Shown here: in pieces, positions 17,837 through 23,206 of the stretch
Layout of the letters: each line of letters begins with the position of its first letter
How positions within the stretch are numbered: position 1 is the first letter of the stretch
Origin: a virus
Taxonomy: Duplodnaviria > Caudoviricetes
IMG/VR virus record: IMGVR_UViG_2869221657_000003
Coordinates: 20,732-84,731 of that record
Length of the DNA stretch: 64,000 nucleotides
Reading direction: 5' to 3' (one strand)
The notes under the pieces: model-generated
Told to the model about the DNA's origin: nothing
The model's database searches: none
What the model saw: the letters and a program-made list of their open reading frames with translations, nothing else
Translations under genes and position numbers: made by a program

Positions 17837-18058
17837 ATGAGTAGGGACGCTGCGCGGGCTCGGCAAGAGTTGCGCCGTTCTAACGCGGCTGTCCCGCACC
17901 GTAACCGTTATCGAGAGGCTAAGGCTGGCTTGATCACGCCTGGTGGGAATCCGGTTTGCCTTGTTTGTGGCGATTGGTATGGCCCGCCTTGGCGGCATGA
18001 TTGCGAGGTTGACGATGCCGGGGAACCTCCGGAAGAAAGGTGCAACGGGCAAGACTGA
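17837..18058 (+). CDS. Hypothetical protein with a CxxC motif
   Basis: ATG at 17837; CLVC...HDC. Confidence 0.45.
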   Translation: MSRDAARARQELRRSNAAVPHRNRYREAKAGLITPGGNPVCLVCGDWYGPPWRHDCEVDDAGEPPEERCNGQD

Positions 18059-18434
18059 GGCCGACTACCTGAGGGCTCGTCGCCGGGTGCTGCGTGAGTC
18101 GCAGATTTGCGCGTACCCGCCGTGCCGTAAGGCTATTGACCTGAACTTGAAGCCGATTTGTCAGTTCGTTGATACGTCACTGTTCACGGTTGAGACTGCG
18201 CATTTGATTCCGCTTACTTGTGGTGATGATTGCCGCAAGTTGAAGCACGCTCGTAAGTCTAATCCGTGGGGACCTTCGGCTAACCACAAAGTTCCGGTGT
18301 CTTCGTTGCCGCCGGATTCACCTTTGCTCGCCTCTGCTAAGAATCTTGAGCCTATGCATTTGAAGTGCAATAAGGATTTGGGGGATGGCGGCGTTACGCC
18401 TAGACATAAAACCTCTAGAGATTGGTTTGCATGA
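18015..18434 (+). CDS. HNH endonuclease, terminase-associated type
   Basis: YLRARRRVLRESQIC...C...SANHKVP...NLEPMHLKCN. Confidence 0.7.
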   Translation: MPGNLRKKGATGKTEADYLRARRRVLRESQICAYPPCRKAIDLNLKPICQFVDTSLFTVETAHLIPLTCGDDCRKLKHARKSNPWGPSANHKVPVSSLPPDSPLLASAKNLEPMHLKCNKDLGDGGVTPRHKTSRDWFA

Positions 18435-18655
18435 TGTCTGATATCGCTCCGGATGATAAGGGGAACATCCTTGTCGGTGAGCTTCGGATCATTCAGTACG
18501 TTGACCCGGATGGGAATCTGAATACGGTGGATTTCTCGCAGGGGCATGGCGGTGCTGAGCTTACGGAGGATCAGTATTCCAAGCTGATTGATTGGGCGCA
18601 CGCGTTCAATTTGGCTCCTAAGGTGGCCGCGATTCTTGCGGGGTCTAGTGACTAG
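18431..18655 (+). CDS. Hypothetical protein
   Basis: ATGA-coupled ORF. Confidence 0.55.
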   Translation: MMSDIAPDDKGNILVGELRIIQYVDPDGNLNTVDFSQGHGGAELTEDQYSKLIDWAHAFNLAPKVAAILAGSSD

Positions 18656-18753
18656 CGAGGTTTATCAGTCTGAGGTTGAGTGCCGTTGTATGGATTGTGA
18701 CGACATGATTCGTTTGGGTGATGAGGTTGTGGAGTTCGCGGGGGAGATGTTCC

Positions 18754-19098
18754 ATGCCGAGTGTGTTTAGTGAGCCTTTGCCGTCTGTGACGGAGAGTGA
18801 GCGTGCCAATGAGTTCATTGGGTGGGCTTACGAGGGCGGCTTTGACACCGCGCTTGAGATGTACCGCGAGCGCTATGGGGATGCACCGAACTATGCGGTG
18901 GACTCGCCGGATGGGGGGCACCTGGCGGCGATGACGTGGCTCAAGCGGGCTGTAGAGCTGCTGGAGGCTCGGGAAGCTGAGAAGCGCCGCACACCGTGCG
19001 CTAGTCCGACTGTGCGCCGCCAGGATGGCTGGAATGCGCCAGCGAGCACGCCGCGCAAGTTGTGCAGCGAGCCGATTGGGCTGCATGTCCGCGCCTGA
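18754..19098 (+). CDS. Hypothetical protein
   Basis: ORF immediately before the tRNA array. Confidence 0.5.
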   Translation: MPSVFSEPLPSVTESERANEFIGWAYEGGFDTALEMYRERYGDAPNYAVDSPDGGHLAAMTWLKRAVELLEAREAEKRRTPCASPTVRRQDGWNAPASTPRKLCSEPIGLHVRA

Positions 19099-19106
19099 GT
19101 TTGTTA

Positions 19107-19190
19107 GGTCGTGTGGCGGAATTGGCAGACGCGCCAGCCTCAAAAGCTGGTGGGCTTACGCCCGTGTGAGTCCGAGTCTCACCACGACTA
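19107..19190 (+). tRNA. tRNA-Leu(CAA)
   Basis: Cloverleaf: GGTCGTG/CACGACT, CCAGC-CTCAAAA-GCTGG, long variable arm. Confidence 0.92.
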
Positions 19191-19202
19191 CAACTGAATA
19201 GT

Positions 19203-19278
19203 GCTGCCTTAGCTCAGATGGTAGAGCAGCCGCCTCGTAAGCGGCAGGTCGGCGGTTCGATTCCGCCAGGCAGCTCCA
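19203..19278 (+). tRNA. tRNA-Thr(CGT)
   Basis: GCTGCCT/AGGCAGC, GCCGC-CTCGTAA-GCGGC, TTCGATT, encoded CCA. Confidence 0.95.
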
Positions 19279-19279
19279 G

Positions 19280-19357
19280 CGCGGGGTGGTAGCAGTTAGG
19301 TAGCTTCGCGGCCTCATAAGCCGAAGGTCACAGGTTCAATTCCTGTTCCCGCGACCA
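19280..19357 (+). tRNA. tRNA with CAT anticodon (elongator Met or Ile2)
   Basis: CGCGGGG/TCCCGCG, CTCATAA loop, encoded CCA; C1:G72 is paired, so not initiator-like. Confidence 0.85.
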
Positions 19358-19358
19358 T

Positions 19359-19433
19359 CTGGTTGTAGCTCAGCTTGGTTAGAGCGCTCGCTTTGGATGC
19401 GAGGGGTCGCATGTTCAAATCGTGCCAGCCAGA
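19359..19433 (+). tRNA. tRNA-Pro(TGG)
   Basis: CTGGTTG/CAGCCAG, CTCGC-TTTGGAT-GCGAG, TTCAAAT. Confidence 0.92.
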
Positions 19434-19447
19434 CACTAGGGGGTGTG

Positions 19448-19882
19448 GTGAAACGCTGCGGTAAATGCCAGCAGGAAAAGCCACACTCTGAGTTCAATAA
19501 AAATAAGTCAGCTAAAGATGGTCACCAGGGCCGGTGTCGGCCATGCCAGAAAATCACTGACCGGGCGCACTATCACGGTAGCGACAAGCGAAAGCTGGCG
19601 GTGGCTGCTCAGCGAGTTGCGGCAATTGCTAAGGCTCGGGCGTACGTCGATGGGTGCCTAGCGGCGCAACCATGCGTGGATTGCGGGGAGCGTGACCCTA
19701 TCGTGCTTGAGTTTGATCATGTGCGGGGTGTTAAGCGAAACAACGTTTCGGAAATGGTGCTGGCCGGTTTCGCCGTCCAGACGATAGCTCTTGAGATTGC
19801 CAAGTGCGAGGTCCGGTGCGCCAATTGCCACCGACGTGTTACGCACGCCAGGCGATTGCAAGCGGCTCAATTAGGAGGTTGA
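19448..19882 (+). CDS. HNH endonuclease inside the tRNA array
   Basis: CGKC...CRPC N-terminus, CVDC...LEFDHVRG...CEVRCANCH. Confidence 0.88.
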   Translation: MKRCGKCQQEKPHSEFNKNKSAKDGHQGRCRPCQKITDRAHYHGSDKRKLAVAAQRVAAIAKARAYVDGCLAAQPCVDCGERDPIVLEFDHVRGVKRNNVSEMVLAGFAVQTIALEIAKCEVRCANCHRRVTHARRLQAAQLGG

Positions 19883-19883
19883 T

Positions 19884-20015
19884 ATGACTGATAAGGACCC
19901 GATTAAGGTCGCTAAGGACAAGCTGAATGTGGTTCAGGAGTTGCGTGATCGCAATGAGTGGCCTAAGGCTGAGGCTCCGGACCCGGCTGATTCTGCGGCG
20001 AAGGTCGGCAACTAG
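19884..20015 (+). CDS. Small hypothetical protein (43 aa)
   Basis: AGGAGG RBS, ATG...TAG. Confidence 0.55.
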   Translation: MTDKDPIKVAKDKLNVVQELRDRNEWPKAEAPDPADSAAKVGN

Positions 20016-20019
20016 TGAG

Positions 20020-20365
20020 TTTCAAGTCTTGTAGGGATCACCCTAGCCTTGTGGGCTAGTGGGCCTACCGGTTAGTCCCATCGACTGAACGGGACCGGTG
20101 AGGGAAACCACCGTTATAGCCAACCGCACAAAACTTGGGTCGGTGCAATAGCGGATCGTCAGCCGCGCACACGACGCCTTTATAACCTAGGAACTGTAGC
20201 CCCTAAGTAAAGAGCGCTGACGGAAACCCATTCCGGGATGGGTAGCTACCCAGAGGACGGGTTATCAACTCGCGTGGCCCTGCGGCGAATTGGGCTGTGT
20301 CGGCATGATGCATAATGCGGGCGCATATTCGTTAACCAGGGGCGAAGGTAAATAATCCCTGGTTC
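20020..20365 (+). ncRNA. Candidate large structured ncRNA (GOLLD-like)
   Basis: No ORF in the track; many nested helices; located in a tRNA array next to an HNH gene. Confidence 0.5.
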
Positions 20366-20367
20366 TT

Positions 20368-20440
20368 ATCGCGCTAGCTCAATTGGTAGAGTCCCCGCCT
20401 CCAAAGCGGGTGGATGAGTGTTCAAATCATTCGTGCGGTG
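20368..20440 (+). tRNA. tRNA-Trp(CCA)
   Basis: ATCGCGC/GTGCGGT, CCCGC-CTCCAAA-GCGGG, TTCAAAT. Confidence 0.88.
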
Positions 20441-20496
20441 CTTTTAATGGTCATTCTATGGCCCATTATGCGGGTGTCTGCATCTTTGCGACATAT

Positions 20497-20571
20497 GGCC
20501 CTCTAGCCCAACTGGCAGGAGGCGCGCGCCTTAGAAGCGCGACAGTGAGTGTTCGAATCACTCGGGGGCCA
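20497..20571 (+). tRNA. tRNA-Leu(TAG), short variable loop
   Basis: GGCCCTC/GGGGGCC, CGCGC-CTTAGAA-GCGCG, TTCGAAT. Confidence 0.9.
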
Positions 20572-20643
20572 CGCTAAGTAGCTTAGTGGTAAAGCTCCCG
20601 ACTGTGACTCGGGCGTCGACTGTTCGATTCAGTCCTTAAGCCA
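20572..20643 (+). tRNA. tRNA-His(GTG), imperfect acceptor stem
   Basis: CCCGA-CTGTGAC-TCGGG, GACTG-TTCGATT-CAGTC. Confidence 0.8.
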
Positions 20644-20644
20644 C

Positions 20645-20718
20645 GCGCGGGTAGCTCAGTTGGTTAGAGCACTGCCCTGATAAGGCGGGGGTCCGGGGTT
20701 CAATTCCCTGCTTGCGTA
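20645..20718 (+). tRNA. tRNA-Ile(GAT)
   Basis: GCGCGGG/CTTGCGT, CTGCC-CTGATAA-GGCGG. Confidence 0.9.
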
Positions 20719-20785
20719 CGCGTTTATTTGTCAGTAGCGCGAGGTATTGACGTTTTATTGACCGGTAGCACAATTAGGCGGGTAC

Positions 20786-20929
20786 ATGTCAGATAAGACG
20801 TTTTATCGGTTATGCACAGCGTGGGTGATCTTTATGGCCGTGCTGATTACGATTCCGGTGGCTACCGGGGTTGTTGGGGTGGTTTACCACTTGTTTGATC
20901 CGGATTGCCCAACGGTGATCTGCACTTAG
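20786..20929 (+). CDS. Small membrane protein (47 aa)
   Basis: MSDKTFYRLCTAWVIFMAVLITIPVATGVVGVVY, one long hydrophobic segment. Confidence 0.55.
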   Translation: MSDKTFYRLCTAWVIFMAVLITIPVATGVVGVVYHLFDPDCPTVICT

Positions 20930-20971
20930 ATATACACACACGTATTCAATGCTGGCTTACTTGGGGGTGGA

Positions 20972-21664
20972 GTGTCTAAGGTTCTTAGCCTGTATGGCAC
21001 TCGTAGCTCACAGTTTTGGTCTGAGGCTCCGGCCAAGATGGACGCGTTGAATCTGCGTGCGATCTTCCCATCGGATAACGCGTTCGGCTTCCCTGATCTG
21101 GAGCGGTGTGATTGGGTGCCTGATTATCTGGGTGCTTGGCATATGCCGCGTCAGCGTGAGCGTGCAGCTCGGGAGAACGGCGCTATTCATTTCTTTTTGG
21201 ACGACTACCGCTTTGAGACTGCGTTTACGAGCCCTGAGAGGACCGTAGGCAGAGTTTTGGCGGTGGGTGGGGCACTGACCCCCGATTTCAGTTTGTGGCG
21301 TGACATGCCGCGTGCAGCGCAGATTTGGAACGTGTACCGGTCCCGTTGGTGTGGGGCGTTCTGGCAAGGCCAGGGCGTGAGGGTCATTCCTACTGTGTGC
21401 TGGGCTCGTCCGGACACGTACGACTTCTGCTTTGAGGGGTTGCCTCGCGGCGGCGTGGTGGCTGTGTCTGCGTTGGGTGTGCGTGCGACTGAGGAAGATC
21501 AGACGTGGTTCCAGATGGGGCTAAGTGAGATGGTGTCTCGGCTTGAGCCGGCGATTGTGCTTAGCTATGGGAAGTTGCGTTATGTGGAGGGTTTGGATTT
21601 GCCTGTGGTGAAAGAGTTTCCGACGTTTTGGGATGAGCGCCGTAAGGTGCTTAAGGGAGAGTAA
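20972..21664 (+). CDS. DUF4417-family protein
   Basis: HFFLDDYRFE, TPDFSLWRDMP, QIWNVYRSRW, VIPTVCW, FCFEG, AVS motifs. Confidence 0.85.
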   Translation: MSKVLSLYGTRSSQFWSEAPAKMDALNLRAIFPSDNAFGFPDLERCDWVPDYLGAWHMPRQRERAARENGAIHFFLDDYRFETAFTSPERTVGRVLAVGGALTPDFSLWRDMPRAAQIWNVYRSRWCGAFWQGQGVRVIPTVCWARPDTYDFCFEGLPRGGVVAVSALGVRATEEDQTWFQMGLSEMVSRLEPAIVLSYGKLRYVEGLDLPVVKEFPTFWDERRKVLKGE

Positions 21665-21744
21665 AGCAGGCCGTTAGAGTGCCGACTAGTCTTGAAAACT
21701 AGGTGTCCCTGTGAGGGGACTGGGGGGCGGGTCCTCTGCTCTCC
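21656..21744 (+). tRNA. tRNA-Ser(TGA)-like, non-canonical T-loop (possibly degenerate)
   Basis: GGAGAGT/GCTCTCC, CTAGT-CTTGAAA-ACTAG, long variable arm, G73; T-loop is G-rich instead of TTCGA. Confidence 0.6.
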
Positions 21745-21890
21745 GCTTCTAGCTGGTGTTGCTGTTCTTTTACTTGGCCGATTCGGAAGGTGTAGCCGAG
21801 TATGGCGGCGATTAGCAGGAATGCTGCTAGGTGCCATGTTTCGAGCGTTACTGGTAGATACCAGAATGCGGTGGTGATGTCACCTTCCAT
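21699..21890 (-). CDS. Putative small single-pass membrane protein
   Basis: MEGDITTAFWYLPVTLETWHLAAFLLIAAILGYTF; GGGGGA upstream of the ATG. Confidence 0.4.
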   Translation of the reverse strand: MEGDITTAFWYLPVTLETWHLAAFLLIAAILGYTFRIGQVKEQQHQLEAESRGPAPQSPHRDT

Positions 21891-21968
21891 TGTGGCTTTT
21901 CCCCCGGTTTCGGTTTTGTTTTCGCGTATGTTATCGCACCTGTGTGGTTCCTGCAAGGGTGCTGTGGT

Positions 21969-22044
21969 GCCGCTGTGGCTGAATGGTTAGGCTGCCGCCC
22001 GCAAAGCGGTTTATTCCGGTTCGATTCCGGGGGGGGGGGCGGCT
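21969..22044 (+). tRNA. tRNA-Cys(GCA) with an expanded G11 run
   Basis: GCCGC-CCGCAAA-GCGGT, CCGG-TTCGATT-CCGG; 11 G where about 6 are expected. Confidence 0.7.
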
Positions 22045-22056
22045 CTTTATTGACAT

Positions 22057-22129
22057 TGGCATGTAGCTCAATTGGCAGAGCACTAGATTGTTAATCTGGG
22101 GGATGCAGGTTCGACCCCTGCGATGTCAG
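22057..22129 (+). tRNA. tRNA-Asn(GTT)
   Basis: CTAGA-TTGTTAA-TCTGG, GCAGG-TTCGACC-CCTGC. Confidence 0.9.
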
Positions 22130-22139
22130 CTTTAGAAAG

Positions 22140-22212
22140 TGCGCCCACTAGGGATCGAACCTAGGACCCGAAGATTAAAAGTCTCCTGCTCTACCAACTG
22201 AGCTATAGGCGC
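22140..22212 (-). tRNA. Phage tRNA-Lys(TTT), opposite strand to the rest of the array
   Basis: Reverse complement: GCGCCTA/TGGGCGC, GGAGA-CTTTTAA-TCTTC, CTAGG-TTCGATC-CCTAG. Confidence 0.95.
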
Positions 22213-22223
22213 TTGCGGCACGA

Positions 22224-22571
22224 TCATACCCCCTGCGTTTCGGCCATCTCGTCGTAGGTGTCGAACAGCTCCGGCCAGTCATCTCCGGGCTGGAAGACGC
22301 TGCCGGGTAAGCGGTTCGTTACTACGGCTAGCCTCATGCCGATGTGCTCTATCCCTACGGTTGCAAGCCAGCCTGCGCAAGCCTGTTCCTTACCTTCGTC
22401 TGTCTTGTGGCAGGCGAAGATGGGTGAGCCTAAGGGGCGTTCGTGCCCGGCCTCTCCGGCGGTGCTGCGGAGCGCTTCGTAGCGTTCTGCGGGGAACTTG
22501 CCGGGTGGGGTGTCGCGCCGCCAGGGGCATTCGTTGCATGGGTAGCGCTTGTGCGGGAGTGATCCGGTCAT
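22224..22571 (-). CDS. DUF6283-like Cys-rich protein
   Basis: PCNECPWRRD...FACHKT...CAGWL. Confidence 0.75.
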   Translation of the reverse strand: MTGSLPHKRYPCNECPWRRDTPPGKFPAERYEALRSTAGEAGHERPLGSPIFACHKTDEGKEQACAGWLATVGIEHIGMRLAVVTNRLPGSVFQPGDDWPELFDTYDEMAETQGV

Positions 22572-22578
22572 GTCCTAT

Positions 22579-22607
22579 ACAGTACGGGAGCCGTACGCCT
22601 TTGTCAA
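22579..22607 (-). promoter_or_regulatory. SigA-type promoter, leaderless mRNA, overlapped by GTAC-N7-GTAC
   Basis: TTGACA-17-TACTGT with 7 nt between the -10 and the ATG at 22571. Confidence 0.8.
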
Positions 22608-22880
22608 CTACCTATTAGCCCAATAGCGCAATTCGATCTCTTTATCTTGGCACTTCTCGACTAAGGGCCTTAGGTCGGCTATCTCCTCGCGGAGAACTTC
22701 AATGACGATCTTTAGTTGGTCGAATTCGTGTGCTGCCTTGCGAATGTTTTGGGTGGCTTGCCACAAGGTCGGCCAGCTGCTTTGAACGTCCGACATCACG
22801 CGTCGGTGATAGTCGGGCTGGGGACCTTGATCGGTGATCGCGGCCTCTAGCTGCTCTAATGCCGCCTTAAGGTCACTCAT
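22608..22880 (-). CDS. Hypothetical coiled-coil protein
   Basis: Coupled leftward ORF. Confidence 0.55.
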   Translation of the reverse strand: MSDLKAALEQLEAAITDQGPQPDYHRRVMSDVQSSWPTLWQATQNIRKAAHEFDQLKIVIEVLREEIADLRPLVEKCQDKEIELRYWANR

Positions 22881-23206
22881 TCCTGCACCACCCAATGAAT
22901 GCGAGCCGCTAACAGTTCCGGCTTATCCTCGCGGCCAAGTTCCGCATAACGGATAACCAGGTGGTTGTAGAAGCCGCGCACTTCATCCTCATTCCGGGAT
23001 ATGGACGATATGCGGGGTTCAAAGCCCTTTTCGGACCAACGCACGGCCCAGATCGGCCCGCCCGCGTAGACACCGGCCACGCCGGTTGTGCTGCCGGGCT
23101 TGTGCTTGTCTTTGCATTCCTGGCACCAGCCGCCCCTTAGTAGGGACTTGCCGCCAATCTGGCACTTAATGCAAATGCCTACGCCTATAGGCTTAGCCTT
23201 AGTCAT
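22877..23206 (-). CDS. Hypothetical protein with a zinc motif
   Basis: CIKC...CQEC. Confidence 0.55.
   Translation of the reverse strand: MTKAKPIGVGICIKCQIGGKSLLRGGWCQECKDKHKPGSTTGVAGVYAGGPIWAVRWSEKGFEPRISSISRNEDEVRGFYNHLVIRYAELGREDKPELLAARIHWVVQE

Follow-up and report, generated by a model that had tools for sequence, protein, structure and literature searches.

In polycistronic precursors that combine mRNA and tRNA, spacers and leaders are cut by RNase P and endoribonucleases; they are usually short and not conserved. The tRNA cluster of phage T4 encodes small stable RNAs, known as species 1 and 2, which share a transcript with the tRNAs and are set free by the enzymes of tRNA processing. 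GOLLD (RF01998) and ROOL (RF03087), encoded by phages and prophages and often found beside tRNA islands, are RNAs of unknown function, and many GOLLD members exceed 800 nt (bioRxiv 10.1101/2024.12.08.627333).

The noncoding segment described here, located in the tRNA array of a mycobacterial prophage, functionally resembles most the spacer and leader RNAs of mixed mRNA/tRNA operons and, more loosely, the non-tRNA RNAs of phage tRNA clusters. Like such spacers it is bordered by a coding region and a tRNA gene of the same strand, adjoins an RNase P site and contains a single-stranded, A/U-rich stretch with hairpins on either side. Unlike them, it contains a module of about 95 nt with 76-100% identity across subclusters, and its tail is unusually long. 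With species 1 and 2 of T4, compared by description only, it shares the position of a putative non-tRNA RNA inside a phage tRNA cluster. As in the case of GOLLD, the segment is found in a prophage and has tRNA genes on both sides. However, it comprises only 352 nt, and whereas the 3' domain of GOLLD is universally conserved, the 3' 245 nt of the segment are without homologue. It also lacks the large multi-domain architecture of GOLLD and ROOL, with about 95 nt being conserved, and these in cluster L phages only.

Genomic setting

The window, i.e. the whole stretch of 64,000 nt that was analysed, corresponds to positions 208207-272206 of G000:C33, a contig of a Mycobacterium genome (6.07 Mb, 78 contigs). 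In a megablast search, region 18000-23000 matched cluster L mycobacteriophages (Lclasvirinae), a few Streptomyces phages and nothing else, with identities of 78-84% over small fractions of the region. The region is accordingly a divergent cluster L-like (Lclasvirinae) prophage. The following features were assigned around and within the segment:

Upstream of the HNH gene, plus strand: genes for tRNA-Leu(caa), tRNA-Thr, tRNA-Met and tRNA-Pro (ARAGORN)
19359-19434, plus strand: tRNA-Pro, overlapped by the HNH ORF
19397-19882, plus strand: HNH endonuclease gene (phrog_2255, E 1.7e-34)
19884-20015, plus strand: ORF of 43 aa (phrog_10206, E 4.9e-22) with an AGGAGG ribosome-binding site in front
20016-20367: noncoding gap of 352 nt between the 43-aa ORF and tRNA-Trp
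20029-20092, plus strand: conserved core P1-P3 (blastn, shared MFE architecture)
20096-20119, plus strand: P4 hairpin, CGGUG-AGGGAAAC-CACCG, directly followed by single-stranded UUAUAG
20124-20333, no strand assigned: orphan stretch, no relative detected
20334-20364, plus strand: terminal hairpin AACCAGGG-(15 nt)-CCCUGGUU, a perfect 8-bp inverted repeat present in the MFE and centroid folds
20368-20441, plus strand: tRNA-Trp(cca) (ARAGORN; Rfam tRNA 52.4 bits)
Downstream of the gap, plus strand: tRNA-Trp, tRNA-Leu(tag), tRNA-His and tRNA-Ile, then a DUF4417 gene
22139-22212, minus strand: tRNA-Lys(ttt), a leftward tRNA

All neighbours of the gap are encoded on the plus strand, i.e. four tRNAs, the HNH gene, the 43-aa ORF, four further tRNAs and the DUF4417 gene. 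The rightward tRNA genes of cluster L phages are clustered and likely expressed in lytic growth (PMC10865867). The tRNA genes of these phages also matter for lysogeny: their "tRNA-dependent lysogeny" needs a leftward tRNA, to which the minus-strand tRNA-Lys(ttt) of the window corresponds (PMC10865867). The leftward tRNA-Lys(ttt) unit may end near 21705-21720, where the minus strand has a hairpin and T-run resembling a terminator. In the cluster L-like contig L103 tRNA-Lys(ttt) is found on the array strand, as reported for Baudelaire.

The initial annotation of the segment had seen no ORF in it, and indeed every one of the six frames of 20016-20367 is interrupted by stops, and ORFs from start to stop reach 25-36 aa at most. 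Its statement that the segment ends 3 nt before tRNA-Trp was correct in that the segment adjoins this gene, but ARAGORN and Rfam place the start of the tRNA at 20368, so that position 20365 is 2 nt before it. The HNH gene, named there as the neighbour, is located upstream as described but does not adjoin the segment directly; the 43-aa ORF lies between the two. Release of the segment's 3' end by RNase P at tRNA-Trp is a reasonable assumption. Given that its 5' end is undefined, we consider it more probable that the segment forms the 3' portion of the HNH/43-aa-ORF transcript than that it is an RNA of its own.

In view of the overlap of its ORF with tRNA-Pro, the HNH gene probably starts further downstream than 19397. 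Its closest relatives are merely 55-60% identical (L001:2068-2499, L100:428-1102 and L103:351-776). A related HNH gene separates tRNA-Pro from the conserved element in MS810, Finemlucis and the Logan contig L103. Several cluster L genomes carry related HNH genes inserted at this one spot, between tRNA-Pro and the conserved core, while other members are without them; such presence and absence is the pattern of a free-standing homing endonuclease. The 43-aa ORF gave tblastn matches in 58 cluster L phage records (60-77% identity), and in LeBron the stop codon of this gene forms the start of the conserved element. A profile of the 43-aa ORF detected no relative in genome and metagenome contigs, and exact-protein look-ups for three neighbouring genes found nothing on record. 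In the window the 43-aa ORF comes after the HNH gene and not before tRNA-Pro, indicating that the region has been rearranged.

A conserved element at the start of the tRNA block

When the 352 nt were compared with 50,697 phage records (blastn, word size 11), positions 20034-20092 were the sole matching part, with 76-86% identity to the versions of MS810, DyoEdafos, Chaser and Bromden. The core version of Faith1 matches 64 cluster L records at 91-100% identity. This core is kept in cluster L while other nearby noncoding sequence is unalignable. Its upstream border coincides with the end of the preceding feature, and in every case a tRNA gene lies downstream, i.e. the core heads a tRNA block. 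The preceding features are:

43-aa ORF: LeBron and the window
tRNA-Pro: Faith1, Crossroads and Tourach
HNH gene: MS810, Finemlucis and Logan contig L103

The core is present in a single copy in the window. With no match in Rfam, no feature assigned to it in the annotation of nine phage records that were inspected and no description found in the literature (where likewise no cluster L RNA-seq was found), the element of about 95 nt appears to be previously undescribed.

The covariance model R1, built from five sequences including that of the window, found the element in 15 cluster L loci, but neither in 31 IMG/VR loci with related HNH genes nor in the L5 phage Aegeus. The score of 92.5 bits for the window follows partly from the construction of the model, because the window is part of the seed alignment. 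The window carries a P1-P2-P3 core that ends in CGACUGAACGG and heads a tRNA block, followed by P4 and then UUAU. The element likely folds into the four predicted helices P1-P4, composed as follows:

P1, enclosing P2: GUAGG/CCUAC in the window; (A)AGGG/CCCU(U) elsewhere
P2: hairpin CUAGCC-UUGUG-GGCUAG in the window
P3: CGGU/AUCG (one G.U pair) in the window; UCGGU/ACCGA elsewhere
P4, window: CGGUG/CACCG, then UUAUAG
P4, LeBron and DirkDirk: CGCAG/CUGCG, then UUAUCA
P4, DyoEdafos: CGCGC/GCGCG, then UUAUAA
P4, L103: weak CCG/CGG, then UUAUAU

P1 of the window is slipped and compensated relative to the (A)AGGG/CCCU(U) form. P2 reads CUAGCC/GGCUAG in one group of variants and CGCC/GGCG in a second; MS810 has a G.U pair in this helix, LeBron has a U.G pair, and Chaser and DyoEdafos have U-U mismatches. 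As the G.U pairs fall on the plus strand, we assign the conserved element to this strand. P3 is followed by the invariant CGACUGAACGG, which marks the start of the tail. Across three lineages the pairing of P4 is kept through two-sided changes at three of the five pairs, without mismatch, and in four lineages UUAU follows P4 at tail position 17-21. P4 is absent in MS810, Chaser and Crossroads. The closest relative of the HNH gene (60% identical) led to Logan contig L103, which contributed a new variant of core and P4 and no tail variant.

The predicted MFE structures of individually folded variants exhibit the same architecture in seven of eight cases. In an alignment fitted to model R1 and leaning towards it, with about nine variants of closely related phages in 3-4 lineages, 85.4% of the cells are paired compared to 77.0% in shuffles, none of 500 reaching the observed value; for slid partners the values are 34-56%, and the pair count of helix 4 is contaminated by phages without P4. 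With the unfitted alignment as input, RNAalifold returned a covariation term of 0, and the core folds with z-scores of modest size (-0.3 to -1.9).

Every helix named in the initial annotation is present in the sequence. Comparative support exists for two only, namely CTAGCC/GGCTAG and the hairpin GGT-GAGGGAAAC-ACC; the latter, described there as a GGT/ACC hairpin with a GAAA loop, is P4. The helix ACCGG-GTCCC/GGGAC-CGGT is specific to the window and competes with this hairpin for one CGGT. The suggestion of a new motif holds for about 95 nt (20029-20123), which are conserved and show some covariation among homologues, but not for the remaining three quarters or so of the segment (20124-20367), for which no homologues were found.

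The stretch between the element and tRNA-Trp

The stretch of about 245 nt at 20124-20367 gave no blastn match (word size 11) in the 50,697 phage records. In 800 Mycobacteriaceae genomes only chance matches of 20-37 nt to the segment were detected. Exact 20-25-mers of the segment do not occur in IMG/VR and genome contigs, and an exact 20-mer search of metagenome contigs resulted in five chance matches of 20-26 nt. An nhmmer comparison with 80 IMG/VR HNH loci gave no relative of the 3' part. The term orphan therefore denotes that no relative was found in the collections searched, which may lack near-identical records and in which the scans with exact words see close copies only.

The site occupied by this stretch varies strongly among the phages. 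In ten variants the distances from the core to the next tRNA are 5, 8, 8, 36, 61, 64, 72, 92, 126 and 275 nt, with unrelated inserts. This variation and the unrelated fillings indicate that the site directly after the core is a hot spot of insertion and deletion, of which the window is an extreme case. The terminal hairpin of the window (20334-20364) ends 3 nt before tRNA-Trp. In five variants (the window, Faith1, DyoEdafos, LeBron and L103) unrelated hairpins end 3-5 nt before the tRNA. The tail of L103 (positions 835-890, run SRR20462245) closes, directly before tRNA-Leu(tag), with a long, palindromic, terminator-like hairpin that carries a U-run.

A weak second LeBron-like module is formed by GGGUAGCU at 20240 and GUUAUCAA at 20261, and this pair of 8-mers hints at a duplicated P4-type module; at least two 8-mers shared with the LeBron tail were also obtained in 129 of 5000 shuffles. 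An internal duplication of the two halves of the segment was considered and was not convincing.

Folding energy and transcription signals

The dense base pairing attributed to the segment in the initial annotation does not exceed that of random sequence on the plus strand. The plus strand has an MFE of -124.2 kcal/mol compared to -121.1 +/- 5.8 kcal/mol in 100 dinucleotide shuffles (z -0.54). Positions 20124-20367 likewise exhibit no excess folding energy on this strand. In sliding windows of 120 nt across 19000-21100, the gap gave z-scores of +0.7 to -1.9, similar to the flanking HNH gene and tRNAs; as true tRNAs score no better, this test is weak in both directions. The orphan tail is a caution in this respect: helices drawn by hand in a sequence of 55% G+C do not show a structured RNA.

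A consensus scan of 20016-20367 detected no promoter and no intrinsic terminator. For the latter a G+C-rich hairpin with a U run was sought; the terminal hairpin is followed by CUUAUCG.

Proposed role and alternative explanations

We favour, with about even confidence, the interpretation that the segment is a co-transcribed leader or 3'-UTR of the rightward tRNA operon, consisting of a conserved processing and stability cassette and a lineage-specific, probably neutral expansion. It would then be a transcribed spacer connecting the HNH/43-aa-ORF message to the second tRNA block, acting as 3'-UTR and pre-tRNA leader together. Positions 20029-20123 would represent a conserved plus-strand cis element of cluster L, made up of P1-P3, P4 and a single-stranded UUAUA. 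At the exposed, A/U-rich UUAUA an endoribonuclease may cut, so that mRNA and tRNA precursor come apart, and exonucleases may be slowed by the hairpins that remain at the 3' terminus thus created. Transcription across the segment and the cleavage sites are what we infer from this arrangement, and the assignment of a nuclease site and a stabilising role to the cassette is conjecture. Positions 20124-20367 would be a lineage-specific expansion at an indel-prone site, probably without sequence-specific function, whose terminal hairpin could cap the 3' end left by the RNase P cut at tRNA-Trp. Against a neutral spacer it can be argued that 245 nt are long for a compact phage genome.

The element of about 95 nt, with its covarying hairpin, marks the start of a tRNA block across cluster L mycobacteriophages. 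As these phages are genetically tractable, it offers a cheap test case for the separation of mRNA and tRNA in mixed operons, and also for the question why the adjoining 3' spot gains and loses sequence freely.

Alternatively, the approximately 350 nt, or the 95 nt plus tail, might be released by the tRNA-processing enzymes as a stable trans-acting RNA, which we consider unlikely. By analogy to the RNAs of the T4 tRNA cluster, such an RNA could possibly serve as a decoy or sponge for a host RNase, a tRNA enzyme or a defence protein. Its location within the tRNA array, the end at an RNase P site, the conserved structured 5' module and a terminal hairpin suited to the protection of a 3' end are consistent with this explanation. 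Furthermore, the tails of Faith1, the L107 contig and LeBron look like one frame with variable hairpin lengths, as in many functional RNAs. However, there is neither a defined 5' end nor a promoter, the largest part is unique to this prophage, and the tails of MS810, Chaser and Crossroads comprise just 5-8 nt; the plus strand also shows no excess stability, and Rfam contains no relative. It is quite improbable that the module of about 95 nt and its variable hairpin tail, which in the window has expanded the whole to 352 nt, form an undescribed phage RNA family that is released by RNase P and acts in trans during lytic growth. Such a family may, for example, titrate an RNase of the host, a defence enzyme that modifies or cleaves tRNAs, or the prophage's Ro60-like protein.

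Another explanation, which we regard as rather doubtful, is that the core acts as DNA, i.e. as a recognition and cleavage region or recombination junction for HNH homing endonucleases, with the tail as debris of co-conversion or repair. In MS810, Finemlucis, Vetrix, Lewan and L103 the HNH gene is located exactly between tRNA-Pro and the core, and in phages without it tRNA-Pro is directly followed by the core; the mosaic gene order around the core and the indel hot spot right after it point in the same direction. On the other hand, the compensatory changes in P4 and the strand-specific G.U pairs indicate pairing at the RNA level, L1 phages such as LeBron, without an HNH gene at that site, show the same degree of conservation of the core, and an allele that carries the endonuclease usually has a disrupted or diverged homing site.

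It is improbable that the orphan 245 nt are the remains of decayed tRNA genes or of a small gene between the core and tRNA-Trp. The position and size would fit: LeBron has tRNA-Lys and tRNA-Tyr at this place and Aegeus tRNA-Tyr and tRNA-Phe before tRNA-Trp, and 245 nt equal two or three tRNAs. A 14-mer at 20189-20202 corresponds, with one mismatch, to the first bases of tRNA-Leu(tag) of Chaser and LeBron, and 20258-20283 is loosely similar to a T arm and acceptor end. Nevertheless, the Rfam tRNA model finds nothing inside the segment at E<=10, and ARAGORN detects no tRNA with default and only implausible ones with relaxed settings. Aligned locally to 97 cluster L tRNAs, the stretch reaches best scores of 20-27, which is within the range of shuffled sequences (mean 23-27, maximum 29-36). 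A decayed gene is contradicted by the six-frame peptides, which match nothing beyond the core.

An antisense RNA transcribed from the minus strand across 20016-20367 is very unlikely. The minus strand does fold better than its shuffles (-126.2 compared to -112.7 +/- 5.2 kcal/mol, z -2.61, 2 of 100 as good), aided by a helix of 10 bp around 20185-20208, which includes G.U pairs and is not possible on the plus strand; since both strands and several windows were tested, this z-score of about -2.6 is weak. A weak sigma-70-like site (CAGACA-16-TAGAAT) at 20480-20453 of the minus strand points into the gap, but promoter-like sites occur at chance rate (2 found, 2.0 expected). In addition, the neighbouring genes are all on the plus strand, as are the G.U pairs of the conserved core, and the leftward tRNA-Lys(ttt) unit appears to end near 21705-21720.

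Rfam was searched with the whole window at gathering scores and with 19900-20500 (601 nt) at E<=10 and permissive filters. Both searches gave tRNAs only; no GOLLD, ROOL, YrlA, tmRNA, group I or II intron or self-cleaving ribozyme was found in the segment. The spacers of five cluster L loci matched no Rfam family either. Calls of a tmRNA by relaxed ARAGORN were permuted, low-quality artefacts. The compact GOLLD variant proposed in the initial annotation, or a ROOL variant, has next to no chance of being correct: the context alone fits (a prophage with adjoining tRNA genes), but of 4227 Rfam models none besides that of the flanking tRNA rose above noise at E<=10, the segment has less than half the size of GOLLD, and it is mostly unconserved (about 245 of 352 nt without homologue).

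Other candidate RNAs of the prophage and of cluster L tRNA arrays

The prophage itself contains a Ro60-like gene and three stem-framed RNAs approximately 17 kb upstream of the segment, which is a likeness to YrlA/Ro60 systems. The locus (L101:1001-2790, on G000:C33 about 4-6 kb before the window start) comprises an ORF of 477 aa, putatively DUF2828/Ro60-like, and three RNA units that share the frame GUGGAC...GUCCAG, its 5' strand being followed by ACAGCAAU in each. A tRNA-like T arm and a weak match to YrlA (28.3 bits, E 0.006, gathering score 69) were detected in the middle unit. Altogether, this looks like a phage Ro60/Y-RNA locus. The segment differs from YrlA (RF02553), which gave no match in 19900-20500 at E<=10. 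A Y RNA was rejected as a candidate for the segment, which contains neither the GUGGAC...GUCCAG frame nor the ACAGCAAU handle seen in the upstream units.

In Chaser an abiF RNA motif (RF03085) was detected between tRNA-Gly and tRNA-Lys (L090:2863-2899, 40.5 bits, gathering score 37), which is unannotated in the record; the window has no counterpart at threshold.

Chaser (L090:1372-1590), Bromden (L093:803-1020) and DyoEdafos (L102:701-795) have an unannotated block of about 220 nt in common, located between tRNA-Pro and the core, with 93-94% identity. No match to this block was found in Rfam. About 95 nt of it are also present in the M. chelonae phages Aegeus and Baudelaire, between tRNA-Ile and tRNA-Pro (87.5% identity). 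The block may correspond to a further, distinct conserved RNA in the tRNA arrays of cluster L.
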